Source of the DNA: a virus
Taxonomy: Duplodnaviria; Heunggongvirae; Uroviricota; Caudoviricetes
Strand: one strand, 5' to 3'
IMG/VR virus record: IMGVR_UViG_2617270939_000002
Length of the DNA stretch: 34,039 bases
Position 1 is the stretch's first letter. Every line of letters begins with the position of its first letter. Below the pieces are notes generated by a model, which did no database searches, was not told the DNA's origin, and saw nothing but the letters and a program-made list of their open reading frames with translations. The translations under genes were made by a program, and so were the position numbers. Of the stretch, positions 7,397-34,039 are shown in pieces.

Positions 7397-7612
7397 TTAT
7401 TTTCTGAATTCTAACGAAGACTGACCAGAACGAATGTACAGTGCAATATTATCAAATGTAATCATTGTTGATTTGCAAAAAATACATTTTGCTCCGAAAG
7501 GATTTTTTTCAGTAACATCAAAGTTTGACGTTCGGTACTGAGATCCGTGGCAACACGGACATCTGAAGTGAATATTATTAGTAATAACAGTTACCTTATA
7601 CAGCCACGACAT
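7397..7612 (-). CDS. Hypothetical zinc-ribbon-like small protein (71 aa; CPCC...CIFC)
   Basis: ATG at 7612; two Cys pairs about 22 residues apart; overlaps 3' end of csp gene by 17 nt; weak RBS. Confidence 0.3.
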
Positions 7613-7808
7613 TAACTGCCGTGGGGCCTTTAGGTCCCTGTTCAACACTAAATTCAACTTCCTGATTCTCATTCAACGTCTTGAAATCATTACTCTGGAT
7701 AGCAGAGAAGTGAACAAACACATCTTTACTACCATCTTTTGGAGTGATAAAACCAAAACCTTTTTCAGGATTAAACCATTTAACTAAACCAGTCATTTTA
7801 TTAGACAT
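7596..7808 (-). CDS. Cold-shock protein, CspA family (CspB-like)
   Basis: [53 protein letters not shown]... ; long AT-rich upstream leader typical of csp genes. Confidence 0.9.
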
Positions 7809-8240
7809 AAACATTACCTTTATTGAGTAAGCCCTTGGGCAGAATGGTCCGAAAAAAAATTATCAGAGAGAAAAGCTAACAAGGAAATCTCAACAGGAAC
7901 AAGGAATAAAATTATTACAGCGACTGCTTCAGATAAATTCGTTACAAACCAGACATTCATTAACGCATGATTAACCAGACATAGCAAGGTTTAGTTTTGT
8001 AAGTAAATCTCAGTGGGTTTTGATCTTAAAAATTAATTTAAATAGCTTAAATCGAAAATTATGTCATGCTGCGTAAGACCTTTATCTATCACCCTAAGTT
8101 GTCAGGGATTTTGACTCAAGGAAGAGTCGTATTTCCTTCATAGTAAAAATTCACAAATTTATCCACGAAAACCGTCAACATCTTAATTTATAGAGCTATT
8201 ATTTTTCCTCTACGGTTCATTGTTAGTATTTTTACGGACT

Positions 8241-13442: not shown

Positions 13443-13829
13443 ATGTCGTGTAGGCGTAATATCCCACGATGGAAAGCATACAGGACATTTTTATGCAAAG
13501 TCAACACTAACGTGCAAAAAAGTGTCGCTACCGTAACCCGTACCAGACCCGCCACACATTCGCCACCAGACACATTAGCCAGGGCGTAAACCTTTTCTGG
13601 CTTGCCGGGCAGATGGGGCATAAAGGGCCGGAAATGCTGTTCCGCAATTACGGTAAATACCTGGCTGAATACGACGGGAAAACCGCCATTTCAGCAGCTC
13701 TGTAGCGTCGTGAGTATTTCAAAATGTTGGACGGAATCAGGACGTTAGAGGGACCACGATATGCACGTAAAATGCACTTGAGGCCTTTCAAAAAAGACAA
13801 AACATTAATATTCAATAGGTTAAGCATTA

Positions 13830-13864
13830 TTCGGACACGGGTTCAACTCCCGCCAGCTCCACCA
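13830..13864 (+). other. 3'-terminal fragment of tmRNA (ssrA)-like sequence ending in CCA; att core, not an intact RNA gene
   Basis: TTCGGACACGGGTTCAACTCCCGCCAGCTCCACCA matches the E. coli ssrA 3' end as I recall it (one difference); upstream sequence does not match the ssrA body. Confidence 0.7.
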
Positions 13865-13932: not shown

Positions 13933-14030
13933 ACGTCTATTGTAGTCTAGTGAGAATTGCTGAGAACTACGAGTTATGGCACCCTGAATGGGACCCACGA
14001 AGATGGGTCCTAAAATCGAGGGTCCCAAAC

Positions 14031-15260
14031 ATGGCCAAAATCGCTAAGAAGCTCACTGACACTGAAATCAAAAGCACCAAACCTGCCGAAAAAGAGGTTA
14101 ACCTTTTTGACGGCGATGGTTTGCTGTTGCGAATCGCTCCCCTGGCGAAGGGAGGGAAGAAAAATTGGTATTTCAGATATGCAGTGCCTGTGACCAAAAA
14201 GCGAACTAAGGTGAGCTTAGGAACCTATCCTCACCTTACACTTGCGAAGGCACGAGCTTTACGTGATGAATACTTGTCGTTGCTTACAAATGGTATAGAC
14301 CCCCAAGTTCATAACAACCAAAAAGCCAATGCACTGAAAGATGCCACGGAACATACATTTCAAGCAGTAGCCAAGAAGTGGCTTGATGAGAAAGTCAAAA
14401 CGTCAGGCATCTCCCAAGATCATGCTAACGACATCTGGCGAAGCCTAGAGAGAAATATCTTTTCCACATTGGGTGATACCCCAATTAAGGAGATTCGCCC
14501 TAAAATGCTTAAACAGCATTTAGAACCCATAGAAAAACGAGGTGTCCTTGAAACACTTCGCCGCATCATATCCCGCCTGAATGAAATTTTCCGCTATGCA
14601 GCAACAGAAGAACTCATAGAATTCAACCCGGCAGACAACCTGGGGCAACGGTTCAGCAAGCCAAAAAAACAGAATATGCCAGCATTACCCCCTTCCGAAC
14701 TCCCTCGCTTCTTGGTTGCTCTAAACAATGCTTCTATCCGTTTGGAAACAAGGCTACTGATTGAGTGGCAACTTCTCACATGGGTTCGCCCAGGTGAAGC
14801 TGTTCGCACAAGATGGTCAGATATTGATATTGAAACTGGCATGTGGAACATCCCGGCGGAGTTTATGAAAATGAAGAAGCCTCACAAAGTTCCACTGAGC
14901 AAAGAAGCTTTGCGAGTTTTGGATTTAATGAAAGTCATCAGCGGGCATAGAGAGTGGGTGTTCCCCAGTATCAAAGCTCCACTCAATCACATGCATGAAC
15001 AAACAGCTAATGCGGCCATAATCCGTATGGGTTTCGGAGGTGAGCTTGTAGCTCACGGTATGCGATCCATTGCTAGAACGGCTGCTGAGGAGTCTGGCAA
15101 GTTTAGGACTGATGTCTTAGAAGCCGCCCTTGCCCACTCGAAGAAAGATGAAATAATTGCAGCCTACAATCGTGCAGAGTATCTCACTGAACGGGTGGTT
15201 CTCATGCAATGGTGGAGTGACTATGTTTCGTCTCAAAAATGCAAAGTTATTGCCGCATAA
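14031..15260 (+). CDS. Tyrosine integrase, P4 family (IntA-like), 409 aa
   Basis: MAKIAKKLTDTEIKSTKPAEKEVNLFDGDGLLL...WYFRY... N-terminus and C-terminal HGMRS...LAHS...Y catalytic region; adjacent to ssrA-type att. Confidence 0.9.
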   Translation: MAKIAKKLTDTEIKSTKPAEKEVNLFDGDGLLLRIAPLAKGGKKNWYFRYAVPVTKKRTKVSLGTYPHLTLAKARALRDEYLSLLTNGIDPQVHNNQKANALKDATEHTFQAVAKKWLDEKVKTSGISQDHANDIWRSLERNIFSTLGDTPIKEIRPKMLKQHLEPIEKRGVLETLRRIISRLNEIFRYAATEELIEFNPADNLGQRFSKPKKQNMPALPPSELPRFLVALNNASIRLETRLLIEWQLLTWVRPGEAVRTRWSDIDIETGMWNIPAEFMKMKKPHKVPLSKEALRVLDLMKVISGHREWVFPSIKAPLNHMHEQTANAAIIRMGFGGELVAHGMRSIARTAAEESGKFRTDVLEAALAHSKKDEIIAAYNRAEYLTERVVLMQWWSDYVSSQKCKVIAA

Positions 15261-17099: not shown

Positions 17100-17985
17100 A
17101 AAAAATGAATTCCCAATAATTCAAATTGAGATTGCAAAAATAAAATTTCTTAACCCACGAACAAGAAATAAGTTAGTGCATGAAGAAATAAAGGAAAGCA
17201 TAAAAAAAAGAGGATTAAGCAAGCCTATAAGCGTAAGAGCTATTGATGAAGGCGATTTCAAATATGCTTTAATTTGTGGTCAAGGGAGAATAGAGGCTCT
17301 CGTTGCATTAGGTGAAACTATTATTCCAGCAATTATAAGAGATGTATCAGAAGAAGATGCTTACGTTATGAGTTTAGTTGAAAACATTGCAAGGAGAAGA
17401 CCACGTTCTAATGAGTTATTACAGGTGATTAAAGACATGAAAATCAGAGGACTTTCAGACTCCGAAATAAGTGAGATTACTGGATATTCATCGAACTGGG
17501 TGAGCAGTATTAATATGCTACTTGATAAGGGAGAGCATAAACTTCTCTCAGCAGTCGAACGGGGTAATTTGCCTCTGTATCTCGCAGTGCAATTTGCAAG
17601 ATGTGAAACTGAGGAAGCACAAGATATTCTTACCGAAGCATATGATAAAAAATTAATAAAAAGTCGGGACATTATAAAGATAAAACACATTCTAAATCAA
17701 AGAACAGTTGGGAATAAAGGTGCAAAAGCAGCCGGATTTTATTATCACAAACCATCAAAAAGGATGACTGCAGAGGAGTTGATTGAGCTTTATGAAAATA
17801 GTATCGCTGAACATAAATCTGTTTATAACAACTCAAAATTCATAAAAACCAACCTACTAATAGTAAATGAGATTTTTAACATCATAATGATGAATAAAAG
17901 CTTTCAACATATACTTGAACAAGAGAATCTTTCAGAACTACCATCTCAGATATTAACCCCAATAAACAAAGAGGTATTAAAATGA
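17089..17985 (+). CDS. ParB-like N-terminal domain protein with HTH (paralog 1)
   Basis: ISVRAIDEGDFKYALICGQGRIEALVALGETIIPAIIRDVSEEDAYVMSLVENIARR matches ParB/Spo0J N-domain pattern; 11-nt overlap with recombinase. Confidence 0.7.
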   Translation: MLPEKNEFPIIQIEIAKIKFLNPRTRNKLVHEEIKESIKKRGLSKPISVRAIDEGDFKYALICGQGRIEALVALGETIIPAIIRDVSEEDAYVMSLVENIARRRPRSNELLQVIKDMKIRGLSDSEISEITGYSSNWVSSINMLLDKGEHKLLSAVERGNLPLYLAVQFARCETEEAQDILTEAYDKKLIKSRDIIKIKHILNQRTVGNKGAKAAGFYYHKPSKRMTAEELIELYENSIAEHKSVYNNSKFIKTNLLIVNEIFNIIMMNKSFQHILEQENLSELPSQILTPINKEVLK

Positions 17986-18878
17986 TTCAGATACGTTTTG
18001 GCGATAATTTTATTTACCTGGAAACTAATAAGTTAATTCCATCTAAGGAATTATTAGAAAACGTAAAGCGAAGCCATAAATATCATCAAATAGTTACCTC
18101 TATCGAAAGCTTAGGTATTATTGAACCAATAATAGTATTCTATGACAAAGATAAAGATGTCACTAAGATACTTGATGGCCATTTAAGGGTTGAGGCTTTA
18201 AAAGACTTAGGTATAGAAAAAGCTCCATGTATACTTTCGAGCATAGATGATGCTTTCACTCCTAACAAACAAGTGAATCATATAAATGTAGTTGAAGAAC
18301 ATAGAATGATAATTAAGTCTCTGGCAAAAGTATCAATTGAAAAACTTAGTGCTGCTTTGGGCATATCTGTTGATGCCATAAAAGATAAAGCGAATGTGAT
18401 GAACGGCATAGATCCAAGTGTAATTGCGAAACTTTCTGATAAACCTATACCTAAGGCTACATTTGACGTTTTGAGGAAAATGAAGCCAATTCGCCAAATT
18501 GAAGCAGTCGGTACAATGATTAATTTTGATAATTATAGTAAAAAATTTGCAATGAGCATCTTGGATGCAACACCGGCATCGATGATAGTAAATAAAGGGA
18601 AAAACACTCCCTATAAAAAGGATATAAAAAAAACCATACTTCGTCTGGAACAAGAAATGGCAACAACTTCGGAAGAAACGAAAAAGCTTCAAACCGAGTA
18701 TGGTTCAGATATGTTGAAATTCGTTATAATCCAGTCATATATTAATAAATTACTTGGCAATTCTAAAGTTCTTCATTGGTTCTTAGAAAACGAGGTTGAT
18801 TATCTTAATGAGTTAAAAAGAATTTCTAGAATAAATTCTTTGGATGATAAGACTCTTACTGAAAACAGCAAGTCATAG
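17982..18878 (+). CDS. ParB-like N-terminal domain protein with HTH (paralog 2)
   Basis: IIEPIIVFYDKDKDVTKILDGHLRVEALKDLGIEKAPCIL...; ATGA overlap with paralog 1. Confidence 0.65.
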   Translation: MIQIRFGDNFIYLETNKLIPSKELLENVKRSHKYHQIVTSIESLGIIEPIIVFYDKDKDVTKILDGHLRVEALKDLGIEKAPCILSSIDDAFTPNKQVNHINVVEEHRMIIKSLAKVSIEKLSAALGISVDAIKDKANVMNGIDPSVIAKLSDKPIPKATFDVLRKMKPIRQIEAVGTMINFDNYSKKFAMSILDATPASMIVNKGKNTPYKKDIKKTILRLEQEMATTSEETKKLQTEYGSDMLKFVIIQSYINKLLGNSKVLHWFLENEVDYLNELKRISRINSLDDKTLTENSKS

Positions 18879-19532: not shown

Positions 19533-19552
19533 CTTCGCTTGTACAAGCGAAG
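19533..19552. repeat. Perfect 9-bp inverted repeat around a central TA dinucleotide (CTTCGCTTG-TA-CAAGCGAAG)
   Basis: Read directly; the 2-nt spacer argues for a DNA-level protein-binding or crossover site rather than an RNA hairpin. Confidence 0.6.
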
Positions 19553-19587
19553 ATCCTATTGTTCTTGAATGAATAATGCCAATTATA

Positions 19588-19631
19588 AGAGAAGCAAGGG
19601 CTAACTCTGCGAAGCCGCTGCGCTTGCTTCT
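19588..19631. other. GC-rich stem-loop (10-bp perfect stem gagaagcaag/cttgcttctc, 24-nt structured loop) inside an AT-rich ORF-free gap
   Basis: Read directly; followed on plus strand by a C/T-rich tract. Confidence 0.5.
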
Positions 19632-20612
19632 CCGGTTTCCCCTTGCTTTTCTTCCCTTCGGTTAGAAAAGAAAAACCTGGTCTTTCTCTTTCAATGTCTG
19701 CACATTTACTACAACAGATTAGACAATCGCAACTATTTATTTTATATGGAAAACTAGTGCTTAAATTGCAGCTCTCATTTTTATCAATCATTTTGCATAA
19801 GATAAATTTAAGTTTATATACCAAGGCATCCCGTTAGTTTTTACACGTAGGTAAACTAATAGTCAAAATCGAACTTTGAATTGTAGATTCTTTTAATTTA
19901 ACTCTATCCATCCGGTTAGAGGTAAAGGGAGGTTCATTTCAAGATATCATTGAACACAGTTCCAGATTAATATTATCAAAGAATTGAAAAAGATAATTAT
20001 TATTGCAATCCGTTAATGAGTCCACTTCAATTTTCCGTTCTTCTTACAGCGTTCTGAACAGTTAAACATATGATAGCTATTTAAAACCTTCGGTAATCTT
20101 ATCCAATACGGACTTGTCTGGTTTGATAATTACCAGAATCACACTATGCTCTTCAGTCTAATTTGTCAGTGATAAGGAGATCCGACCTATCGAACTTGCG
20201 TCATTTCCTAAATTTAGTGATTATAAATGTGGTTATCTATGGTCTTGTTGTGAAGATGTAGGCTGGAATTATCATGACGAACTGCAGCCTACATAAGCCG
20301 ACAGTACGGCTTTGATCGAATCATTAACTCTTTTATCATCTCAGGAACTGTGCAGACATTCCAGTTCAATTTTATAACGTTCAGTAAAAATTTAAAAAGG
20401 TGACAGCCCATGATCTCAATTGCAGACAATCAACCGTCTTTGATGATCATGGGTATATAAGTTTAACAAGATGTCTTCATCTCATGTGATTAAAATATAT
20501 AACAACACTAATTTAAAAATCGATTCTTAACTCTTCCAAAATATCACCCTTTATATTTCATTAAATTAATATCATAACTACACATACTAATTAGATAGTG
20601 TGTTAATTAAAT

Positions 20613-22739
20613 TCATCTAACTGACTCAATGATCTTTTGTTCTATAACTCGCCCACCTTGCTTTCCAGACAAAGGACCAATTAGTACTTTAAAGTCGGCA
20701 TAGTCATCTGCCTCAGGCCTATGCTCTATAATAACAATTGCATTGAATAATTTAGATTTTTGATATATAAAATTCAGCACCTTCGAAGCCGTCTCAGAAT
20801 CAAGTCCAGCGACAGGTTCATCAATAAACAATATTTTGTTTGTTTTTCTGGACTTAGATAGTATTTCACATAATTTTATTCTACGCATTTCACCACCTGA
20901 CAGGGACTGCGTTTTTCTATTAAGTTTCAAATGTGATATTCCAAGATAATGGATAGTTTCAAGAATAGTATTAATCTTAGTGTTATTAAAAAAAGAGCTT
21001 AACTCTTTCAACTCAGTATCATATACATCTATTATATTCATACCATTAATCTGAGACTTTACTTCATCTATATTGTGGTCAAACAGTTTACCCTCACATT
21101 TATGACATGATATGTAGATATCCTTTTCAAAACCCCTTTCATATTTTATCACGCCCTTACCTTCACAAACTTTACATCCACCAAGTTTGTTTGGAAGGAA
21201 ATACTCTATATCTAATTTTGTTATATCGGAGAAAAATTCTGCAATTAATTTATTCAAATCCGTGATAGTTGCGACAGTAGAACGTCCTGTATATGATGAC
21301 AATTTTTGGCTTATATAAATCGAATCGGTAAGACTACAAATAGCTTTAGCTAAAGATGATTTCCCCGATCCGGAGATTCCAGAAAAAACAGTAACACACT
21401 CTTTAGGGATACGTATATTTTGATTAATGATGTTATTTTTATTAAGCCCTTCAAAATAATAGTAATCAGATATATTATTTTTGGGATTGAGGTTCCTTTG
21501 CGGCTGAATTTTTTCTTTTTCACAAATTTCCCCACCAGAAGAACCAGCGTATTTACCAACATGGATTTGCTGATCAGCAAGATCTATGAAATACTGCGAG
21601 TGCTCTACTAAAATAACTGTGTTTTTTTCTGATAATTTTTTTAGCTTTTGAAAGATAACTTCAAAATCGACAGGGTTAATTTGGGATGATATTTCATCGA
21701 TAACAATCAGAATACCTGTTGTATTAGATGTTAAAAGCCTGCTGAAAATAAGTTTTTGTATTTCCCCCCCAGAAAGACTGGGAATTGAACGAGACAAATT
21801 TAAATATCCCAATCCCATATTATTTATTGAGGACAACACTCTAATTAATACTGAGTCACCTATAGTTTTTTTCAGGGTATTACATAATTCAGATATAGGA
21901 GATAGTAAAAATTCATCAAATGTAAATCCTAAAACATCAAGTTGGGCTGTTTCTTGGTTAATTCTGCTTCCATTACAAAATGAGCAATTTTCTTCCTTTT
22001 TATACTTTGAATTGTTTTGGCTCCGTCCTATATTCGAATTAGCAAAAGACATTACGCCTTTATAAAAAGCTCTTCTTTGCTTCGTTTTTCCTTTGTGTTT
22101 AAATCTAAAAGATAATTTCTCAGCGCTTTCTCCATATAGTATTAGGTTTTTCTTTTCAAGTGATAGTGAATCAAAAGTATCATCTACTTTTATATTATTT
22201 TTATCACAATAGACCATAAGTAATTGGTGATAATAATCAGATAACTCACCAGTCCGCCAACATAAAAATGGTTTTTGATCTAGTCTACATTTTTCATTAA
22301 TTAATTCAGATTCATCCACACTAACTATCTCGCCAAGGCCTAAGCAGTGTGGACATTCATTTCTATAATTGTTTATTTTTAATTTATCATAATTAGGTAC
22401 TGCTACGTTTCTTTTGATTTTTAAAGATGACAAAGCTTGAGCTATATTCAGATATGAATATATAGTTGAACGAGGGTTGTTATTTGTGTTTCTTTGTGGT
22501 ATCGCAACAGCGGGAATTAACCCACTGAAATTTGCAACTTTATAATCACTTTCATTCAAATAACCGTTTTCTACAGCATCAAACTCATCTTTGCATAATT
22601 GATAAATTGATGAAAATGCTAAAGAACTTTTTCCTGCGCCCGAACGGCCATAAATAGCGGTTATTGTATTAAATGGTATAGTAACATCTAAATTTTTTAA
22701 ATTATGGGTGGCTATTCCCTCAAAAATGATCTTATTCAT
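20613..22739 (-). CDS. UvrA-like double-ABC ATPase with zinc-finger insertions (708 aa)
   Basis: Two Walker A motifs (GRSGAGKSS, GISGSGKSS), two ABC signatures (LSGGEIQKL, LSGGEMRRI), several CxxC pairs; AGAGGA RBS; ATG overlaps upstream stop as ATGAATAA. Confidence 0.85.
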   Translation of the reverse strand: MNKIIFEGIATHNLKNLDVTIPFNTITAIYGRSGAGKSSLAFSSIYQLCKDEFDAVENGYLNESDYKVANFSGLIPAVAIPQRNTNNNPRSTIYSYLNIAQALSSLKIKRNVAVPNYDKLKINNYRNECPHCLGLGEIVSVDESELINEKCRLDQKPFLCWRTGELSDYYHQLLMVYCDKNNIKVDDTFDSLSLEKKNLILYGESAEKLSFRFKHKGKTKQRRAFYKGVMSFANSNIGRSQNNSKYKKEENCSFCNGSRINQETAQLDVLGFTFDEFLLSPISELCNTLKKTIGDSVLIRVLSSINNMGLGYLNLSRSIPSLSGGEIQKLIFSRLLTSNTTGILIVIDEISSQINPVDFEVIFQKLKKLSEKNTVILVEHSQYFIDLADQQIHVGKYAGSSGGEICEKEKIQPQRNLNPKNNISDYYYFEGLNKNNIINQNIRIPKECVTVFSGISGSGKSSLAKAICSLTDSIYISQKLSSYTGRSTVATITDLNKLIAEFFSDITKLDIEYFLPNKLGGCKVCEGKGVIKYERGFEKDIYISCHKCEGKLFDHNIDEVKSQINGMNIIDVYDTELKELSSFFNNTKINTILETIHYLGISHLKLNRKTQSLSGGEMRRIKLCEILSKSRKTNKILFIDEPVAGLDSETASKVLNFIYQKSKLFNAIVIIEHRPEADDYADFKVLIGPLSGKQGGRVIEQKIIESVR

Positions 22740-23814
22740 ACTTTCCTCTACACCAATCACATTCAGGATCACGTGGAACATCTTGGACGTTAAAAGATAA
22801 ACTTCTAAGACTAAATTCGACTCTTTTATTTTCTTGTTGCAAGTGATCTACTTTCCCGGCAAGTAATTTTATAGCGTCCAAGCTTGCAAGGCTTGCAGCC
22901 AGACCTGATAGTGGTGAAAATGAACCTAATTTTCGTTTTACCCGGTGCAATTTCTTCACATTAACAAGGTCTTTGCTATTTATTTTTCCTAAAAATAGGT
23001 TAAAACAATTAAAGCATGCTGACTTAAATGGAATAATTGTCTGACCGATAAGGGTTTGATGAAGATTATATCCCCCGCCAACTATATGTGGGATATTATG
23101 AATCATACTAAAGAGGGCGATTATTTTACTGGTGTAATCCACATTAGGTTCATCAGCGCAGTTTATTATCAAATCTATATCAGAGGGTAGAATATTTCTT
23201 TTAAAAAAATCATCATCGATAATGTCATTGATAATGTCAATCTTAATATCTGGAGATATCTTTTTCAAAGAGTTGAGTAACGCTATATTTTTATCAGAGT
23301 TAATTTCATCCTCGAAATAAAACTGACGATGTAAATTACTTATATCTACATTATCGTGATCTACAAATATTATCGAACCAACATTGCAATGAGCAAGATA
23401 CGTTGCCACATTACTACCGACTGCTCCAATACCTACAATCATTACTTTTGATTTTTTAAGATTAATTATACATTCTAAAACCTCACTGGTGGTATGACAG
23501 TAGTCTTCAAATGTATTGATCATTCTATATTGTTCAGTGACAAGCTCTGCAGGGTATTGGCAATCTTGATCGATAATTATATTGTTTTCATTCAAAAACA
23601 AAGCTAATTTTTCAAGTTGTTGAATATCGATTCCTGAATAATTTGCTACAATTTCTTGAAGAGAAGTTTGCCCATCAAACATCTTTAAGAGTTCAACTAT
23701 ATTTGGAAAGTTGATTTTTATTTTTATACTTTCTCTAATATTGGATTTAAAAAACTCTACAGTATCATCATTTACGACGATACCAATACTTTGTCGCAGT
23801 CTAAAATTATTCAT
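22732..23814 (-). CDS. E1-like adenylyltransferase (ThiF/MoeB/MccB family) with PqqD-like N-terminal peptide-binding domain, paralog B (alternative GTG start at 23832)
   Basis: KVMIVGIGAVGSNVATYLAHCNVGSIIFVDHDNVDISNLHRQ nucleotide-binding motif; N-terminal LLKMFDGQTSLQEIV; C-terminal CFNC...CDWC. Confidence 0.8.
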   Translation of the reverse strand: MNNFRLRQSIGIVVNDDTVEFFKSNIRESIKIKINFPNIVELLKMFDGQTSLQEIVANYSGIDIQQLEKLALFLNENNIIIDQDCQYPAELVTEQYRMINTFEDYCHTTSEVLECIINLKKSKVMIVGIGAVGSNVATYLAHCNVGSIIFVDHDNVDISNLHRQFYFEDEINSDKNIALLNSLKKISPDIKIDIINDIIDDDFFKRNILPSDIDLIINCADEPNVDYTSKIIALFSMIHNIPHIVGGGYNLHQTLIGQTIIPFKSACFNCFNLFLGKINSKDLVNVKKLHRVKRKLGSFSPLSGLAASLASLDAIKLLAGKVDHLQQENKRVEFSLRSLSFNVQDVPRDPECDWCRGKYE

Positions 23815-24931
23815 TACAGATTTTGCATCCACTTTGTTTTACCAATTCAAAATTAGTCATTTTGCCTTCGTTTGGAAGGTATTCATACCGACTATTTACA
23901 TATGAAAATGCTGAATCATCCAACAGGAAGTGAATTAATTTCATGCAACTTAGATTAGCTGAAAAACCATTCATCATTGCTAATCCACCAGGCCCTCCTG
24001 GAATATAATTATCATAGACAGATTTTGAAAGGTCCAGTTGAGGATTATTGACTATACTATATACAGGCTTCCATCCTTTTAATGCCTTTGAAAACGTATT
24101 TTGGGCACAATCTATACAGGGTGTATGTGGAGGGAATATTAATTCTCCTGAACTCATTAAGTGGGCGTCAAATCCACCTGATACATACAGCGGAATAGCT
24201 CTTGCTTGTGCATATCTACCAAGTTTTAAAGAAGTATGACCTATATAAGGCTCATCACAAGTATTAATAATCAGATCTGTATCATCAGAAATGATAGAGG
24301 ATAGATTAGTAGTAGGTATAAGTTTTTCAAAATGTTTTGTTATTATTACTCGACTATCGATCCAACTCAAAAATTCTGACAGGACATCTACCTTTGGTTT
24401 TCCGATTTTCTTATAGTTATAATAACAATGCCTTGCTGCATTTGACTTTGAAAGGGACTTATAATCAACCAAAACTATATTTTTAACACCTGCGCGGACA
24501 AGTATTTCTATAATTTTGGCTCCTACAGCTCCACACCCAAATAAAACAACCTTTTTGCTCTCCAAGATATGTTGAGTTTCTACACCAGGTCGTTCAAGGA
24601 CAAAATCGTCCCAAAATGTAATTTGTCGTGAAAAACGAGGTTCAATATCGCAAATGTTATTTACATCATAAATAAAATGTTGATTTAGTAAAAAAGCAAT
24701 TAGTTTATCGACATCTTTTGAGCGTAGGGACCCCATCTCAGTAACTATATCATTTATAGTTTTTATACCATCAAGGCTGGCAATAAATCGAGCGACATTT
24801 TTATTAGTTTTTATTTCTAATCTATCACGCGTTGTCATCACATGAAATGTGAGTTTGACATTATCAGTATTATCTTCATTCGATATAAAAATATCCACAG
24901 TTTCTTTTATTTTATATTTTTTGGAGTCCAT
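23807..24931 (-). CDS. E1-like adenylyltransferase (ThiF/MoeB/MccB family) with PqqD-like N-terminal peptide-binding domain, paralog A
   Basis: KKVVLFGCGAVGAKIIEILVRAGVKNIVLVDYK motif; N-terminal FIASLDGIKTINDIVTEMG; C-terminal CIDC...CKIC. Confidence 0.8.
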   Translation of the reverse strand: MDSKKYKIKETVDIFISNEDNTDNVKLTFHVMTTRDRLEIKTNKNVARFIASLDGIKTINDIVTEMGSLRSKDVDKLIAFLLNQHFIYDVNNICDIEPRFSRQITFWDDFVLERPGVETQHILESKKVVLFGCGAVGAKIIEILVRAGVKNIVLVDYKSLSKSNAARHCYYNYKKIGKPKVDVLSEFLSWIDSRVIITKHFEKLIPTTNLSSIISDDTDLIINTCDEPYIGHTSLKLGRYAQARAIPLYVSGGFDAHLMSSGELIFPPHTPCIDCAQNTFSKALKGWKPVYSIVNNPQLDLSKSVYDNYIPGGPGGLAMMNGFSANLSCMKLIHFLLDDSAFSYVNSRYEYLPNEGKMTNFELVKQSGCKICNE

Positions 24932-24945
24932 TGTATATTCCCAAT

Positions 24946-24970
24946 AAAATCGCCCATCAAGGGCGATTTT
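24946..24970 (-). terminator. Perfect 10-bp hairpin (aaaatcgccc-atcaa-gggcgatttt) between small ORF and first E1-like gene; candidate attenuator/partial terminator
   Basis: Read directly; placement between a small ORF and enzyme genes is the classic precursor/processing arrangement. Confidence 0.5.
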
Positions 24971-24979
24971 GAATTTAGA

Positions 24980-25180
24980 TTAATATTGGAGAACGCCGGC
25001 GTTAACCTCCAAGTATTTTTCCCAAGCATCTAAATTCGACGCTGAGTTTTGCTCGTCGTTACCAGCTCGCGTGCATACACGAGTACAACAGTCACTACGT
25101 TCTCCAGAGCAACCACCCGTATAGTTGGCGGTAGCATTGGTATTGCTGATGACTTCAAATGTTAAATCTAAACACTGCAT
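24980..25180 (-). CDS. Small Cys-rich protein (66 aa), candidate precursor/substrate peptide of the E1-like operon
   Basis: ATG at 25180 with AAGGA RBS; MQCLDLTFEVISNTNATANYTGGCSGERSDCCTRVCTRAGNDEQ...; GC content higher than the enzyme genes, so assignment is tentative. Confidence 0.4.
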   Translation of the reverse strand: MQCLDLTFEVISNTNATANYTGGCSGERSDCCTRVCTRAGNDEQNSASNLDAWEKYLEVNAGVLQY

Positions 25181-25610
25181 ATCAGGTCCTTTGCAAGTCA
25201 ATTGATTAGCAAGCTAAGCATTCTCTTTGATATAGCTTAATTTTAAGAAAAAACTTACCCTTCATGATGATTAAATCACAAAACTTCTGTTCATGGGAAT
25301 GGTAATTTTTTGTGCGGATTCAATGCCAAATCTCATCAACAGATCGTCCTAAATAGATGCTCGGAATAGTAAAACAGTTTGAGGGAACTCAGCACGCACT
25401 GAGCGAAGCAGATCGTAGCACTTCTTCTCCGTAGCGAACGATGCCCGATACATAAAACGCTTCATAAAACCCATGACAAGACCCACACCCGCAGATTGAT
25501 CACCATGCTGATGTAGCATCGTGGTGACCGTGGCAGAGACACTGCCAAAACGCTCAGCTATGCCCGTTCATCCACTGAGCGTTGGATAAACTGGTTTACA
25601 GTTTCGAGGA

Positions 25611-26156
25611 TTGAAGACCAGAAATCGTTGCCTAAGCGATATTCTTAAAGCGTCGGCGGAACGTTCAGACAAACCCACTGGAGCTGTGCTACAGCATCTT
25701 ATTGGAGCCAAACTCCAATTGCGCTTTCCCAATGTTAAAATCGGCAGTGACAGAGCCAATGCAGCTGACTTACACACTGACCGTGAGGGTGATTTTCAGG
25801 TGGGTACTACTGCATTCCACGTGACCACCGCACCTATGGAGAAATTGATTTCGCGCTGTGTCGAAAACAAACGTGCAGGCTACAGGCCGGTCATCCTAAC
25901 TCTTGAAAGCAAAGTCATTGCAGCACGCCAGATGGCTGATAACGTTGGTATGTCTGAACAGATAGCCGTCCAGGCAGCCGAAACTTTCATCGGTAACAAT
26001 ATTGAAGAGATTGCTATCTATGACGGCGATAAAATCCGTGAGGGTCTCGCAAGACTGATACGTACGTACAACGTCCGTATCAATACTATCGAGATAGATA
26101 AATCCCTTATGATTGATGAGCCTCGTTGGATCGTTAACTTACTGACCGACTCCTGA
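25611..26156 (+). CDS. Hypothetical protein, possibly 5'-truncated gene remnant (TTG start in ORF track), in a segment of E. coli-like GC content
   Basis: 181-aa ORF without a convincing start or RBS; composition differs from flanking AT-rich DNA. Confidence 0.4.
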   Translation: MKTRNRCLSDILKASAERSDKPTGAVLQHLIGAKLQLRFPNVKIGSDRANAADLHTDREGDFQVGTTAFHVTTAPMEKLISRCVENKRAGYRPVILTLESKVIAARQMADNVGMSEQIAVQAAETFIGNNIEEIAIYDGDKIREGLARLIRTYNVRINTIEIDKSLMIDEPRWIVNLLTDS

Positions 26157-26701
26157 AATACATAGAGATCAGCAAGCTTAACGAGTCGCTTTTTTCCACC
26201 ATACCTAATCCCCAGAACTAAAGCACTACGGCTTGGTTGGGCTGGCGTAAGTCTGCACACTGGGCCTTTTGCATTATGATTTACTCAGAATATATAACCA
26301 ATATGTCGGAAAAGGTTTAAAGTGAATGATTCGTTTTGACGGGATACTTACGATTATCATAGCACCATCACATATTGTGTCTCAGACACAAAGTTGAAAA
26401 TTAAACCTGGAGTAAAAGATATAACATTCCCCCGCTACAATAAGATTCGCCTCAAACATAAAATCTTTAATGGAACACATTTCCTCCTAAGCATTGGGAA
26501 ACAAAAACCCACCAATCAACCGCGAAATAAAAAAAAGCACTTTTTGCTAAATATAAATTTATTTATATAAAACATCGCATTAAATTAATCATATAAAAAG
26601 AAAACGTTTACTTATTTTTCATTATTAAAAATAAATTTGATTTTTAATTATTTAATAATATATATTCATTCCATCAATAAAAATAATAAAGGAGAATAAA
26701 A

Positions 26702-27156: not shown

Positions 27157-28110
27157 ATGAGTAACTATACAGAAGATAATTTATTTGACAGCATATCTAA
27201 AAAAGACGTCCAGAATTGCATTGCTGCAGGCATTGACATTAACACACTAAATGAACACGGTGAAAACGCCCTTTTCGGTTGCGACAGTATCGGGGCTTTA
27301 AAAGCTATGATTGAAGCAGGCATAGCGCTGAACCATACAGATTGTTATGGTAATAATGCCCTGTTTAGCAGAAAAAGCCCACGAGCACTGGGGCTATTGA
27401 TAAAATCAGGTATTAACGTTCATCACAAAAATAATAAAGGCCTGTCCTGTCTTCACTGGCAGCACTACGACATAGATTGTGCGGAACTCCTCATTAACGC
27501 GGGCGTTGATATCCACAGCACAGATAATGAAGGTCAAACGCTTCTTTACAACCTCCACGATCATGACGTCTTTGATTACTGGGTAAATAAAGGGTGTGAC
27601 ATAAACCACAGAGATTATAATGGCAAAGCGGTGCTGGACCTTCCGACTGACGACGAGTGGTGGATATATGATTTCAGTATTAATGCCCTCAAACGCCATG
27701 TTGACAGAATAGACAGCACACCAGTTTTATTTAAACATATTTCAACTGAGGCGTTGCCTCTGATTGCTTTGCTTCATGAAAAAGGGCGTAATATCCTTAT
27801 CGCTGAACACTGTACCTTCGCATTATATGTCAAAAACATGAAGTCCTTCTTTACCTCACTGAAAAAATATACCGATATCAGTCATGTTCAGTTTTATAAT
27901 TGTTATCATGACAGACATATTGGTGTCTATACTGGTATTGAGACAGTAAAATGGTTTATTCGAAATGGTATCAGAGTGGACGACGATATACTGAGACAGC
28001 GTGCTGACTCTGATAAAATTTTTGACTATATAAGCGGAAGAGAGAAAAAAGATTTTCTCAAAATCATGAAACCAGAAATCACCCATGCGCCGAAGAGAAA
28101 AAGAATGTGA
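27157..28110 (+). CDS. Ankyrin-repeat protein (N-terminal ANK repeats, unknown C-terminal domain)
   Basis: Repeated ...G(I/V)(D/N)(I/V)N..(D/N)..G..AL(F/Y/H)... units (NEHGENALF, DCYGNNALF, NNKGLSCLHW, DNEGQTLLY, DYNGKAVLDL). Confidence 0.75.
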   Translation: MSNYTEDNLFDSISKKDVQNCIAAGIDINTLNEHGENALFGCDSIGALKAMIEAGIALNHTDCYGNNALFSRKSPRALGLLIKSGINVHHKNNKGLSCLHWQHYDIDCAELLINAGVDIHSTDNEGQTLLYNLHDHDVFDYWVNKGCDINHRDYNGKAVLDLPTDDEWWIYDFSINALKRHVDRIDSTPVLFKHISTEALPLIALLHEKGRNILIAEHCTFALYVKNMKSFFTSLKKYTDISHVQFYNCYHDRHIGVYTGIETVKWFIRNGIRVDDDILRQRADSDKIFDYISGREKKDFLKIMKPEITHAPKRKRM

Positions 28111-28174: not shown

Positions 28175-28207
28175 ATAAGTAAGCCATTCAGCCAATGGCT
28201 TACTTAT
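28175..28207 (+). terminator. 14-bp perfect inverted repeat followed by T-run; terminator after ANK gene and/or oriT-like inverted repeat upstream of mobC
   Basis: ataagtaagccatt-cagcc-aatggcttacttat then ttttatttt. Confidence 0.5.
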
Positions 28208-28307
28208 TTTATTTTCTCTGATTATATGCATTATATTTCACATGACGTATTGACTTATTTACATCATCCGTTATCTGTAGTAATAAACAAACAATACAAG
28301 GATAACT

Positions 28308-28697
28308 ATGAATAATGACATAACAAGACTATCAAGGCGTGGAAAATTCCATACTGACAAACTTCCGCCTGATGAAAGACGAAGCCACTGCGTCAGTGTC
28401 AGATTAAATGAAGAAGAATTAACTATTCTCGACAGTAAAAGAGGCCAGTATAAAAAAGGGGAATGGTTGAGAATGGCTTCCCTGAACAAACTCCCACCGG
28501 TTCTGCCCGAAATAAATCGCGAAGCATGGATTAAACTCGGCAGCCTTTCCCAGGATTTAAATTACCTACTGAATCATCTTGACAAGAAAAGTCCTGACAG
28601 CGAACTAACCCGTACAGAACTCTTTGCCCTGCGCAGACAAATCAAAACGCTTCGGGATCACCTTATTCCCTCAACATTTCTGGAGCAAGACCGATGA
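28308..28697 (+). CDS. MobC-like relaxosome accessory protein (ribbon-helix-helix)
   Basis: RRSHCVSVRLNEEELTILDSKRGQYKKGEWLR pattern; ATGA coupling to relaxase. Confidence 0.65.
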   Translation: MNNDITRLSRRGKFHTDKLPPDERRSHCVSVRLNEEELTILDSKRGQYKKGEWLRMASLNKLPPVLPEINREAWIKLGSLSQDLNYLLNHLDKKSPDSELTRTELFALRRQIKTLRDHLIPSTFLEQDR

Positions 28698-29953
28698 AAG
28701 GCATGCAGAAAATAAAAAGGGGTAAACAGTTTGCAGGAGTGGTGCTTTACAGCCTCAAATCCGGTCCACACCACAACGTTATGCCTTATGTCATCGGTGG
28801 TAATATGATCGGAAGTTCGGTGGCTGAGCTTATCAGTGAGTTTGAAATTTCTAAACAATTGCGTCCCGATGTCGCCAAACCCGTCTGGCATAATTCACTT
28901 CGCCTGCCAAAGGGAGAAACACTGTCAGCCAGACAGTGGGCGGCATTCGCCGACGATTATATGACCCGGATGGGGTTCACTGAAACGCACCTTCGCTGTT
29001 ATATCCTTCACGATGATACCGACGGGCAGCATATCCATATCATTGCAAGTCGCATTAACATGGCCGGTGGAAAGCTGTACCTGGGGAAAAATGAAAATCT
29101 CATCAGCACCCGCATTATCAGCGAACTGGAGCGAATACACGGACTCACTGAAACAACACCTGCAACCAGCAGTCGCCCTCAGGCTAAAAGAAAACCCTCA
29201 CGCAATGAGCTGATGATGGCAGAACGAACAGCAGTTCCCTGCCCTAAGTCTCAGTTGCAGACCCTGATTGATAATGTCTTAACGCATCGTCCCGATTTAC
29301 TGACTTTTATCGACATGCTGGAACAGAAAGGTGTGACCTGTAAACCCAATATCGCGTCGACCGGAAAAATGAATGGATTTTCATTTCAGTACCAGGGTAT
29401 TGCCTTTAAAGCGTCTCAGCTTGGAAAAAAGTATGGCTGGTCTTCTCTGCAAACGCAGATTGATTTTACACCAGAGCACCTGGCCTTACTGAAAAAAGAG
29501 CAACAACAGACTGTACCAGTGCCAGTGCCAGTGCCAGTGCCAGTGCCAGTGCCAGTGCCAGTGCCAGTGCCAGTGCCAGTGCCAGTGCCAGTGCCATCAT
29601 GCGAGCCTGAAGAACAGGTTGCAAACCGGGAAACGATTCTGGAGAAAATCCTTCAGCTTGAAGAAAAAATTCGTCTGGAAAGACAACAGGAAACAGTGGG
29701 TGTCATTCAACTCAGGAGCAAACTGCACAATACAGCTCGTCAGATACCCCGCCAGCGTCGTCTGCATTCGTGGTTTGTATTGCTCGGCCATATTGTGGCA
29801 CTTCTCAGGCGCAGGGGCATGTCTCTGTTACATGCCACTGCACATCCTTTCCACCAAATCCTGCACCTGCATCTTCTGACACCCTGTCATTCCATGACAA
29901 CAAATCCCATTAAAGAACAATTAGTTAAAAATAACCCCCATCCTGCACCATAA
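28694..29953 (+). CDS. Mobilisation relaxase (MobA/VirD2-like) containing a (VP)14 linker
   Basis: HLRCYILHDDTDGQHIHIIASRINMAGGKLY histidine-triad region; follows MobC-like gene. Confidence 0.75.
   Translation: MKGMQKIKRGKQFAGVVLYSLKSGPHHNVMPYVIGGNMIGSSVAELISEFEISKQLRPDVAKPVWHNSLRLPKGETLSARQWAAFADDYMTRMGFTETHLRCYILHDDTDGQHIHIIASRINMAGGKLYLGKNENLISTRIISELERIHGLTETTPATSSRPQAKRKPSRNELMMAERTAVPCPKSQLQTLIDNVLTHRPDLLTFIDMLEQKGVTCKPNIASTGKMNGFSFQYQGIAFKASQLGKKYGWSSLQTQIDFTPEHLALLKKEQQQTVPVPVPVPVPVPVPVPVPVPVPVPVPVPSCEPEEQVANRETILEKILQLEEKIRLERQQETVGVIQLRSKLHNTARQIPRQRRLHSWFVLLGHIVALLRRRGMSLLHATAHPFHQILHLHLLTPCHSMTTNPIKEQLVKNNPHPAP
29514..29597 (+). repeat. Hexanucleotide microsatellite (GTACCA + 13 x GTGCCA) encoding (Val-Pro)14 inside relaxase
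   Basis: Read directly from sequence. Confidence 0.95.
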
Positions 29954-31759: not shown

Positions 31760-32214
31760 AACCCTCTCCTTTTTTGTTTTTATAATTAAGTACTATCAGC
31801 TTTAAAATTTAAATCAATACAAAATTGAAAATATTTTATTTTAAAATGACAACTATTTATTCTTTTAATACTGGAAACAGCTTACGCTGTTGCAATGTTG
31901 AGTCCGATCGATTGCATTACCACTTCCTTTTTTCAAAAGCCAGGTAGTTTCCAGATTTCAGATAAAACCCCTTCAGGAATTTTTTTGAGAGAGTGCTACG
32001 CACCGGCTCACGCCCCCGACGACAGATATATGTAGATTATTTTTACCCGTCAGATGAAAACCCAACGTTTAATCCCTCTTGCAGCGCCGCTGAGTGCCCA
32101 CAGCACTCACTCGCTGAAGCAGAAAGGATTTTTCCGAAGGGGTTCCGGCGTGAGCCGTATTAAGTTAACGGGTAAATCATGTAGTCGGGTCCACTCTTTC
32201 GCTAAACTCAGCAG

Positions 32215-32305
32215 TCTGAATCTCTGCGCGAAGCGTATTTGTGCTGAGAGCTAAACCCAACTGTCTGAACTCCTGCGCGAAGCGTATTTCTACTGACAGT
32301 TAAAC
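32215..32305. repeat. Two tandem 42-bp direct repeats (period 49 bp, about 80 percent identical)
   Basis: tctgaatctctgcgcgaagcgtatttgtgctgagagctaaac / tctgaactcctgcgcgaagcgtatttctactgacagttaaac. Confidence 0.7.
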
Positions 32306-32466: not shown

Positions 32467-32748
32467 GTGGGTGATACATGGTTAATGCTGGAAGAGCTAC
32501 GTTTTGTCATGGAGCAGTTCGCTCAGGCAACTAACGTTGGGCCGTTGATGCAGCACCTTATCCGCTTCTGCGTTTATGCTGGCGGGCAGCGACCGTTTGA
32601 AATGATTGCCAGCCAATGGAGCGCGATTGACTGGCAGCAAAAGACGTTACTGGTCATAGCCGATGTATCGAAAAACAAACGGGAGCACCTGATCCCATTG
32701 ACTGAATCGGCATTAAGTGAATTAGCCTCAGTGAAAGAACTGATGTAG
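32467..32748 (+). pseudogene. Tyrosine integrase internal fragment (5'-truncated, 3' end interrupted by IS insertion)
   Basis: GGQRPFEMIASQWSAIDWQQKTLLVIADVSKNKREHLIPLTESALSEL resembles start of integrase catalytic domain; stop codon created at IS junction. Confidence 0.55.
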
Positions 32749-32804: not shown

Positions 32805-33200
32805 ATGTCTAACACTAACGCCAATTTTGAGATGACCGGGATCCTGTTAGGGCAAGAAGTCCGTAAACGTAAAACTCCTCAGGAGAAGATCGCCATTATC
32901 CAGCAGACGATGGAGCCGGGTATGAATGTCTCCCATGTCGCCCGCCTGCATGGTATCCAGCCCAGCCTGCTGTTTAAGTGGAAGAAGCAATATCAGGAAG
33001 GCAGCCTCACCGCCGTTGCGGCTGGAGAGGAAGTCGTTCCTGCTTCTGAGCTTACTGCTGCTCTGAAGCAGGTCCGGGAGCTTCAGCGCCTTCTGGGCAA
33101 GAAGACGATGGAAGTTGAGATCCTGAAAGAAGCCGTGGAGTACGGTCAGTCGCGAAAATGGATAGCGCACGCGCCCTTGTTGCCAAAGGACGGGGAATAG
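32805..33200 (+). CDS. IS3-family transposase OrfA (IS2 InsC-like, HTH)
   Basis: [53 protein letters not shown]...[17 protein letters not shown]. Confidence 0.85.
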
Positions 33201-34039
33201 CCATGGTCAGCCGGACCATGGGCGTGTCGCGTGCGCAACTGTCACTGCGGATTAACCGTTCTGCCGACTGGCAGGACAGGCGCTGTAACCGGCGTAATGA
33301 AGAAGCAGACGCAGAAATACTGTCGGCTATCCTCAACATTATCAGCGATATGCCGAGTTATGGTTATCGACGCGTGTGGGGCATCCTGCGCAAGCAACGT
33401 CGCACAGAGGGACAGCCACCTGTGAATGCCAAACGGCTTTACAGGATAATGAGCGAGCATAACCTGTTGTTGTTGCATCACAAACCAGAGCGACCGAAGC
33501 TTGAACATAAGGGCAAGATAGCGGTGGCAGAAAGCGATATGCGCTGGTGTTCAGATGGCTTCGAGTTCGGCTGCGACAACGGCGAAAAACTGCGGGTAAC
33601 GTTCGCGCTGGACTGCTGCGACCGTGAGGCCATAGACTGGGCAGCAAGCACGGGAGGCTATGACAGTTCGACCGTGCAGGATGTGATGCTGAGGTCGGTG
33701 GAAAAGCGCTTCGGCGACAGGTTGCCCGACACAGCGGTGCAGTGGCTGACGGATAACGGTTCAGCGTATACCGCGTATGAAACGCGGAGGTTCGCGAGAG
33801 AGCTGAATCTGGAGCCCTGCACAACAGCGGTGAGCAGCCCGCAGAGTAATGGCATGGCCGAACGGTTCGTGAAAACGATGAAAGAAGACTATATCGCGTT
33901 CATGCCAAAACCGGATGTGAGAACAGCACTGCGAAACCTTGCAGTAGCGTTCACGCATTACAATGAAAACCACCCGCACAGCGCGCTGGGATATCACTCC
34001 CCGAGGGAATACCGGCGGCAGCGGACATCGTTAACTTAA
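33158..34039 (+). CDS. IS3-family transposase OrfB (IS2 InsD-like, DDE catalytic domain)
   Basis: RWCSDGFEF...[18 protein letters not shown]...WLTDNGS...[15 protein letters not shown]...[14 protein letters not shown]. Confidence 0.85.

Follow-up and report, generated by a model that had tools for sequence, protein, structure and literature searches.

The window analysed here is the whole 34,039-nt stretch of DNA held as IMG/VR virus record IMGVR_UViG_2617270939_000002. A lambdoid prophage, close kin of E. coli prophages, occupies it from position 1 to ~13.6 kb; it is followed by a genomic island inserted at the ssrA gene, the start of which is marked by the 3' end of ssrA (13840-13864) and a P4-type integrase. 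Our subject is the mobilisation (mob) operon of this island, a mobC-like gene followed by a relaxase gene, and the origin of transfer (oriT) on which this pair would act. An earlier note on this DNA had read a perfect inverted repeat just 5' of mobC as oriT-like. From the comparison of related loci, the cognate oriT is most probably a conserved box and double hairpin at 19592-19671, 8.7 kb upstream, and not the hairpin beside mobC. The operon and its immediate surroundings comprise the following features.

28175..28216, + strand: perfect 14-bp inverted repeat with a T-rich tail (arms 28175-28188 and 28194-28207, 5-nt loop)
28250..28277, + strand: candidate mobC-relaxase promoter, recognised by conservation: TTGACT (28250-28255), 16 nt, TATCTG (28272-28277)
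28298-28302: candidate ribosome-binding site of mobC, AAGGA
28308..28697, + strand: mobC-like gene, 129 amino acids (aa); by homology, a predicted ribbon-helix-helix relaxosome accessory protein of the NikA/MobC type
28694..29953, + strand: relaxase gene, 419 aa (1260 bp), HUH/PF03432, its motif III of the IncP-TraI type; full length, with the frame intact as far as the conserved C-terminus
29516..29596, + strand: (CCAGTG)13.5, a perfect hexanucleotide repeat encoding the (Pro-Val)n linker of the relaxase

An apparently intact mobC-relaxase operon

The 419-aa protein matches the MobA/VirD2-like nuclease domain of Pfam (PF03432) over residues 34-151, with 83.5 bits against a cut-off of 24.6 (E 2.1e-23). 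This is its sole Pfam family match; the MobA/MobL domain, the type found in SEN1980 of the island ROD21, was not detected in it. Its best NCBIfam matches are all relaxases (Bacteroides MobB, TraI/MobA(P) and MbpB) and all lie far under their curated cut-offs, the score on the TraI/MobA(P) equivalog NF041893 being 57.5 bits against a cut-off of 250, so that the protein is related to this group and not a member of it. In a BLASTP comparison, relaxase residues 13-122 align with residues 16-125 of R751 TraI at 25% identity over 110 residues.

The residues expected of a relaxase are all in place. Tyr19, His66, His99, His106, His113 and His115 are invariant in an alignment of 11 sequences ranging from 23% to 83% identity and including R751 TraI. 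Tyr19 stands in motif I (FAGVVLYS) and aligns with the tyrosine of FAGLANYIT in R751 TraI, a residue whose catalytic role is established for RP4 TraI. The histidine triad of motif III (H106/H113/H115) reads LHDDTDGQHIHII, against VHNDTDNLHIHI in R751 TraI, with equal spacing. The C-terminal 120 residues past the Pro-Val repeat are also conserved in frame in relatives. Homologues of the relaxase number more than 3000 and are typically 83-94% identical, which points to purifying selection. They range in length between 395 and 419 aa, for the most part by steps of 2 aa; the CCAGTG repeat thus behaves as an in-frame variable-number tandem repeat, of which the window copy is among the longest. An AlphaFold2 model of the relaxase domain built from 20 close homologues had a mean pLDDT of 45 and was unusable, and a sequence search for a solved structure of either the relaxase or the MobC-like protein returned nothing meaningful.

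The 129-aa protein scores 19.1 bits on the Pfam NikA-like family, below the cut-off of 27, and has no NCBIfam match. Its assignment as MobC-like comes from a plasmid protein, the annotated MobC of pKA2Q, with which it shares 43% identity (E 3e-24) and which itself passes both the NikA-like (40.6 bits) and the MobC (24.5 bits against a cut-off of 23.2) thresholds. The gene adjoins the relaxase gene in the same orientation, as is expected of a ribbon-helix-helix accessory gene, and the two open reading frames (ORFs), 28308-28697 and 28694-29953, are coupled by an ATGA overlap. An ATGA or GTGA overlap of the two genes is kept in nearly all of 47 aligned related loci.

These results bear on several claims of the earlier note. 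The translational coupling that it described is borne out by the ATGA overlap and its conservation, and the tyrosine and histidine motif, whose absence on alignment it had named as grounds for giving up its reading, are present and invariant. Its description of the first gene as ribbon-helix-helix and MobC-like stands by homology to the pKA2Q protein, whereas the protein's own NikA-like score falls short. Judged from these sequences, the mobC-like gene and the HUH relaxase gene form a genuine and apparently intact mobilisation module.

Upstream sequences were compared at 48 loci with relatives of the relaxase, one genome per species, by aligning the 750 nt 5' of the relaxase start with MAFFT. 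The only conserved block 5' of mobC, kept in nearly all of the 48 sequences, is promoter-like and reads TTGAC(T/A)-N16-TAT(CTG/AAA). Distant relatives have TTGACA-N16-TATAAA at the position matching window 28250-28277. A simple consensus promoter scan did not call this segment, which by its conservation we infer to be a candidate promoter of the mobC-relaxase operon.

A conserved box and double hairpin 8.7 kb upstream

In distant relatives of the island (Erwinia, Pantoea, Yersinia, Klebsiella, Rahnella, Pseudomonas and Gallionellales) an element beginning AAGCAAGGGCTAAC lies just 5' of the mob promoter, and a search of the fetched loci found the same box several kilobases upstream in closer relatives. 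The window has an exact 14/14 match to the box at 19594-19607. A covariance model of the element gave a single + strand match in the window, at 19592-19671 (81.2 bits, E 2e-16), in a 1.7-kb non-coding stretch. The parts of the element and a neighbouring repeat are as follows.

19592..19671, + strand: conserved 80-bp element, the best oriT candidate, 8.7 kb 5' of mobC, made up of a box and two hairpins
19594-19605, + strand: invariant box GCAAGGGCTAAC, within the element
~19587-19653, + strand: long imperfect hairpin 1 of the element
19643-19673, + strand: second hairpin of the element, with the conserved loop CCCTTCGG
19533..19552, no strand assigned: 20-bp perfect palindrome CTTCGCTTGTACAAGCGAAG, 40 nt upstream of the element

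One architecture is shared by 22 of the 23 instances folded. In hairpin 1 the outer stem is formed by the box paired with CCCTTGC and the apical stem by GAAGC/GCTTC, while the middle stem varies with compensation (AACTCA/TGAGTT, AACCC/GGGTT, AACTCAG/CTGAGTT); hairpin 2 has the form TTTTTC-GCCCTTCGGTT-GAAAAA. In a 15-sequence alignment 91.5% of cells are paired, compared with 37-64% in slid controls, and four pairs change on both sides. In the MAFFT alignment the 3' arms of the long hairpin were put out of register by indels, so that RNAalifold did not recover it, and per-sequence folding with a hand-written structure was used instead. No Rfam family matches at the element, and a full-text literature search for the box sequence returned only unrelated primer matches. 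The nic site may lie in CCCT/TCGG, a conserved and seemingly single-stranded stretch that follows hairpin 1 by ~11 nt, or in the invariant CGAAGC.

The palindrome at 19533-19552 holds a GCGAAG hexamer that also occurs in the apical stem of the element. It is kept in E. coli, S. diarizonae and E. ruysiae relatives and partly in Lelliottia, and is possibly a site for the accessory protein.

Across loci, the element is linked to the mob operon. Its 12-mer box occurs in 27 of the 48 species-level loci and in E. coli TB4019 (28 loci together), always on the mob strand and upstream of the relaxase, and once per locus save for one extra, non-homologous match in L040 (loci are cited by L numbers). At 20 of these 28 loci the box stands 441-619 nt before the relaxase start, directly 5' of mobC. 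It is invariant from Enterobacterales to Pseudomonas, Methylobacter and Gallionellales. On its far side the element has different genes at different loci (ParB-like, ankyrin-like, ResIII, E1/E2/JAB and ParA-like), so that its constant partner is the mobC-relaxase operon; islands with only tyrosine recombinases also carry it.

Metagenome contigs were scanned with the DNA motif alone, AGCAAGGGCTAACYYNNCGAAGC, and 120 loci were recovered. Relaxase signatures, defined as degenerate DNA for the start MKGMQKI and the GQHIHI motif, are present at 70 of them, in all 70 cases downstream and on the same strand. The distance from element to relaxase is within 700 nt at 47 of the 70 (median 591 nt, maximum 7.1 kb), and a third relaxase signature raises the count from 70 to 71. 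For 18 of the 50 loci that lack a signature, the sequence downstream is shorter than 1 kb. One of the 50, L165, has 9 kb downstream and carries an integrase, a serine recombinase, two ParB-like genes, the element and then a type I restriction-modification (R-M) system; since this is the left-hand architecture of the window followed by cargo, its mob genes would lie beyond the fetched stretch. In another signature-less locus, L146, the ORFs after the element have the same sizes as the L165 cargo genes. Among complete E. coli genomes, 614 of 5426 carry the element, always on the chromosome and in unannotated DNA.

The element can also outlive the relaxase. E. coli 23AR0998 (L059, 18149-22660) retains a relic of the same island downstream of ssrA and behind a P4-like satellite, in which all that is left between IS3 and IS1 is a fragment of the integrase, the element at 100% identity and a UvrA-like gene in truncated form, and the relaxase is gone.

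The inverted repeat beside mobC is most likely a terminator

The repeat at 28.2 kb is exactly as first described, a perfect 14-bp inverted repeat with a T-run just 5' of mobC. Its 14-nt arms are 100% complementary and are followed by TTTTATTTT. The window has no second perfect 14-bp repeat of the hairpin type, and not one appeared in 200 dinucleotide-preserving shuffles. As RNA it folds at -18.4 kcal/mol (z = -5.3) into a 14-15 bp stem with the U-tract UUUUAUUUU; the stem is AT-rich, with only 4 G-C pairs. The hairpin starts 64 nt past the stop codon of the co-oriented ankyrin-repeat gene at 27157-28110. A stable stem-loop, a U-tract and a co-oriented position 3' of a gene together give 28175-28207 the shape of an intrinsic terminator.

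Loci that have an ankyrin gene upstream keep a hairpin at the same place, with three unrelated stem sequences.

Window type: ATAAGTAAGCCATT/AATGGCTTACTTAT, followed by a T-run
E. coli TB4019 type: GGGTATACYATTT/AAATGGTATACC, followed by a T-run
Kluyvera type: GAGCAGATT/AATCTGCTC

The stem type co-varies with the variant of the upstream gene, while MobC and the relaxase stay 76-95% identical, and the hairpin is absent from L019-L024, where the upstream gene differs. Because the stems change with the upstream gene while the mob proteins are conserved, the repeat does not behave as a site read by the conserved relaxase and its accessory protein. The repeat is most likely the intrinsic terminator of the ankyrin gene, and not the oriT for which the earlier note had taken it. 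Such a terminator would insulate the mob promoter at 28250-28277 from read-through. The hairpin was also considered as a decayed copy of the 19.6-kb element, at which the MAFFT alignment had hinted, and this was rejected: the covariance model of the element has no match there at E <= 1, and the hairpins of the E. coli and Kluyvera types share no sequence with the box.

How the island would move

The window can be read as a whole as an island at ssrA with an operon of mobC and a MOBP-like relaxase, an oriT at 19592-19671 and, at 28175-28207, the terminator of the ankyrin gene; we hold this reading with moderate confidence. The island would excise by means of its P4-type integrase at att sites derived from ssrA. 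The predicted ribbon-helix-helix accessory protein would then bind beside the origin of transfer, where the relaxase would cut one strand through Tyr19 and a metal held by His106, His113 and His115, residues that are present and whose chemistry would be that of the family. The relaxase would stay covalently bound and be exported by the coupling protein and type IV secretion system (T4SS) of a co-resident conjugative element, neither of which is encoded in the island part of the window.

The integrase required for the first step, which the earlier note had reported, is confirmed at 13950-15260. The island has its own relaxase and a candidate oriT, and no mating-pair-formation or coupling-protein genes in the part that falls within the window, which is the composition of an integrative mobilisable element. 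The ORFs of at least 90 aa at 13.9-32.4 kb, all of which are assigned or small, include none that resembles a T4SS or coupling-protein gene, and the island may run past the window. That it is an integrative mobilisable element is plausible from its gene content; the earlier proposal is thus borne out for the module, and what has to be given up is the placing of oriT in the 28.2-kb repeat.

Most economically, the ancestral arrangement would run oriT, promoter, mobC and relaxase. Cargo would have been inserted between oriT and promoter in several lineages, to a distance of 8.7 kb here, and the hairpin at 28175 would be the terminator that closes this inserted cargo.

Weighing the alternatives

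Three other explanations were considered. That the repeat at 28175-28207 is after all the recognition hairpin of oriT, with nic nearby and directly 5' of the mob operon as in many small mobilisable plasmids, has in its favour that it lies just before mobC, is perfect and statistically non-random, and keeps its position in ankyrin-bearing relatives. In addition, MAFFT aligned its right arm, CAATGGCTTACTTAT, to the conserved box of distant relatives, CAAGGGCTAACTCAT, and ColE1-type nic regions read TGG/CTTAA, with the nick at the slash. Against this stand three unrelated stems at loci whose relaxases are 76-95% identical, the loss of the hairpin where another gene lies upstream (L019-L024), its terminator-like form and location, the failure of the element's covariance model to match there and, elsewhere in the island, a far better conserved candidate at 19592-19671. 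We regard this explanation as very improbable. The 19.6-kb element could instead have some other cis-acting role. It might serve the ancestral mob promoter region as operator or terminator, be a site of partition or recombination, or encode a small RNA, and oriT would then lie elsewhere, for example in the promoter block 28250-28290, or be absent. A T-run comes after hairpin 1, and distant relatives have the element ~30 nt ahead of the -35 box, which fits an operator or terminator; part of its conservation could reflect such a role. In window-type islands, moreover, it always follows the serine-recombinase/ParB-like block with its two ParB-like genes, so that a role for that module is conceivable in this lineage, and close relatives show strong conservation of the block GTTATCTGTAG within the mob promoter region. 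Yet termination alone hardly explains a 12-nt box that is invariant from Enterobacterales to Gallionellales while its far-side neighbours vary; L025 and L041 have the element without ParB-like or serine-recombinase genes; no Rfam family marks the position; and MobC binding for autoregulation would itself belong to an oriT or relaxosome site. The idea that the element serves the ParB-like/serine-recombinase block as its parS or att site was rejected as a general account, since islands lacking those genes carry it too. Overall we judge another role for the element to be rather improbable.

The third possibility is that the module is non-functional or an irrelevant passenger here, either because the island no longer excises and transfers or because it transfers without its own relaxase. 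The second att copy (attR) was not found in the window, the right side of which holds an integrase remnant (32467-32748) and IS2 (32805-34039), so that the window copy may be immobile. A neighbouring restriction gene is truncated and its methylase gone relative to L053-L056, the 23AR0998 relic has kept the element and lost the relaxase, and deletion of the ROD21 relaxase had no effect on transfer, which cautions against assuming that island relaxases are required. On the other side, the two mob genes run to full length and retain every catalytic residue and a conserved C-terminus, the identical relaxase is found on at least 24 public contigs, the typical identity of 83-94% among the more than 3000 family members points to purifying selection, and the ROD21 relaxase belongs to a different family (MobA/MobL, 1521 bp). 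We consider a non-functional or irrelevant module unlikely, while granting it a real chance. Further results weigh against the reading that we favour, alongside the T-run after hairpin 1, the position behind the ParB-like block, the missing attR and the ROD21 deletion just described. Among the metagenome loci, 24 with the motif and at least 3 kb of downstream sequence have no relaxase signature; L165, the one of these whose left side was looked at, and L146 belong to them. A blastn search of the element against 72,556 plasmids gave no match. The upstream sequence fetched was 6 kb, so that 20 close relatives fall outside the count of loci with the element.

Comparison with known mobilisation systems

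A close likeness of the relaxase is TraI of the IncP plasmids RP4 and R751. Both have FAGxxxY and HxDTDxxHIHI with the same H-x6-H-x-H spacing, both systems have a small accessory gene, in the island ribbon-helix-helix by homology, immediately 5' of the relaxase gene, and NCBIfam TraI_MobP_relax is among the best matches of the island protein. The differences are nonetheless large: the island relaxase has 419 aa against 747 aa for TraI and shares only 25% identity with it over 110 residues, its accessory protein has no detectable similarity to TraJ, the island is without transfer genes, and the candidate oriT lacks an ATCCTG-type nic sequence. The 7-mer GCTAACT of the box core (window 19600-19606) also occurs in the R751 oriT (L052, 21568-21590), between the inverted repeat and the ATCCTG/C nick region. 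For one 7-mer there this may be chance (roughly 5%), and we give it low weight.

Two small IncQ-type or cryptic plasmids, pKA2Q (NZ_MT441555) and pB-8922_6 (CP094373), have mobC and then a relaxase gene in the same orientation. Their relaxases are 43% and 36% identical to that of the island, and the MobC of pKA2Q is 43% identical to the island protein; the plasmid relative at 43% is assigned to MOBP by MOB-suite. Upstream of mobC both plasmids have a box that resembles that of the island, GCAAGGTGTAAYC, together with a hairpin whose loop is of the CYCTTCG type, which is weak evidence for the element as oriT. Unlike the island they are plasmid replicons, and the covariance score of their upstream region, 10 bits, is not significant. 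MOBQ4 plasmids were set aside as a model, their mobC and mobA being divergent (PMC6856555).

The oriT of RSF1010/R1162 (MOBQ) has an inverted repeat followed ~12 nt later by GCGCCCT, which ends at the nick site. In the window hairpin 1 is followed ~11 nt later by the conserved (C/T)(G/T)CCCTTCGG, a likeness to the RSF1010 type in layout only; the motif III of the island relaxase, by contrast, is IncP-like in spacing and sequence and not MobA-like. Salmonella genomic island 1 (SGI1) encodes MpsA/MpsB, and the mobilisable genomic islands (MGIs) of Vibrio carry an oriT that mimics that of SXT; these islands integrate at trmE and yicC. They share with the present island an integrase and att site, mobilisation functions or an oriT of their own and the need for a helper T4SS, while their mobilisation proteins and oriT are unrelated and their integration sites are different.

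Among neighbouring island families, only ROD21 has been studied experimentally (PMC3976249). Mobilisation by helper plasmids, through the island relaxase and an unidentified oriT, has been proposed for ROD21 and the related EARL islands (Pina-Iturbe 2018, PMC6035254). ROD21 transfer depends on pSLT and was left unchanged by deletion of the relaxase SEN1980 (Salazar-Echegarai 2014, PMC3976249). The present island resembles these in its P4-type integrase, its excisable-island design and its want of a T4SS; an E. coli homologue of the island (L001) has a helix-turn-helix gene, like that of a recombination directionality factor, beside a DUF6387 gene, and PGAP names the lipoprotein 3' of the relaxase 'SEN1984 family'. 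It differs in that EARL islands are defined by insertion at Asn-tRNA with a shared direct repeat, whereas this one lies at ssrA; in that SEN1980 is a 1521-bp MobA/MobL-family gene beside a small TraD homologue, whereas here a 1260-bp PF03432 gene stands with mobC; and in that type IV pilin genes are not present in this island. The ssrA site in place of Asn-tRNA, the absence of a tRNA gene from the window and the different relaxase family rule out membership of EARL/ROD21.

Cargo between the element and the mob operon

Comparison with L001, L004, L021, L165 and L146 shows window 19688-26700, which separates the oriT-like element from the mob operon, to be a variable cargo slot. In the window it holds a UvrA-like gene, two E1-like genes and the remnant of a restriction gene; elsewhere it holds a RelA/SpoT-domain gene with two hypothetical genes (E. 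coli TB4019), type I R-M (L165) or single large genes (Lelliottia and S. diarizonae). Defence-type cargo thus accumulates between the 19.6-kb element and the mob genes. The identical relaxase of the public contigs lies, in three of the four places shown, in an island beside mutS with a different integrase, so that the mob and cargo block is modular.

The minus-strand genes at 20613-24931 encode a 722-aa UvrA-like ABC ATPase (PADLOC mad3, E 3e-44) beside two ThiF/E1-like proteins of 374 and 366 aa, for which PADLOC reports E1-E2 similarity. The set matches no complete known PADLOC system and looks like a candidate anti-phage system. The DUF4928/type II restriction gene at 25611-26156 is truncated at its 5' end and matches profile positions 142-306 of 306. 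Four loci with the identical relaxase (L053-L056) have an intact pair of DNA methylase and DUF4928 gene here, which indicates that a deletion of ~1.8 kb in the window removed the methylase.

Relaxase-bearing islands without transfer genes are common, and helper mobilisation has already been proposed for related enterobacterial islands; to this extent the finding is ordinary. What is new is a concrete candidate for the oriT of a relaxase family with a wide distribution in E. coli, Salmonella, Klebsiella, Enterobacter, Erwinia, Pantoea and beyond, and with it a practical lesson, namely that calling oriT by the nearest neat hairpin fails here. If the element is an oriT, such islands, including relics that have lost the relaxase, would be recognisable as mobilisable from sequence, and the clustering of variable defence cargo between element and mob genes would be explained. 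A broader proposal goes further than we can hold to be probable and is put forward tentatively: the 80-bp element would be an undescribed oriT of a very large, island-borne family of MOBP-like relaxases, and the interval from oriT to mobC a dedicated slot for the exchange of defence systems. Were this so, cargo beside the nick site would be the first or the last DNA to enter a recipient.

Layout of the island and other observations

The left end and the integrase of the island are defined by two features.

13840..13864, + strand: attL-type repeat formed by the last 25 nt of ssrA (tmRNA), GGTTCAACTCCCGCCAGCTCCACCA, immediately 5' of the integrase gene and present as a single copy in the window
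13950..15260, + strand: P4-type tyrosine integrase, 436 aa (NCBIfam PRK09692, 444 bits against a cut-off of 434; Pfam Arm-DNA-bind_3, Phage_int_M and Phage_integrase)

A partial tmRNA match in 13600-13864 (Rfam RF00023, model positions 155-374, 32.6 bits, below the gathering score) ends at 13864 in the exact 3' end of ssrA. The junction of prophage and island falls in this same segment, which places the two elements in tandem at ssrA.

Directly 3' of the integrase gene, at 15543-18878, come a large serine recombinase (518 aa) and two overlapping ParB/Spo0J-like genes (298 aa each). E. coli TB4019 has this trio too, and so, to judge from ORFs of identical size in the same order, does the metagenome locus L165. 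The non-coding stretch with the 19.6-kb element follows, and then the minus-strand UvrA-like and two E1/ThiF-like genes, the truncated DUF4928 gene, a 146-aa gene and the ankyrin-repeat gene (27157-28110). On the 3' side of the mob operon lie small membrane and lipoprotein genes, the integrase remnant and, at the end of the window, IS2.

The remnant is a 93-aa piece of a P4-type integrase that matches the middle of PRK09692, and IS2 comprises orfA (32805-33200) and orfB (33158-34039). On the contig of L054 the same junction of integrase remnant and IS2 is followed by phage terminase fragments and then by island genes again. The non-coding DNA to the right of the island genes contains two tandem 49-bp units that are 82% identical (32201-32298). 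In the prophage region, a full-length Rfam match to the cspA thermoregulator (141 bits) lies on the minus strand at 7537-7953, where E. coli relatives annotate a prophage-borne cold-shock gene (cspG).

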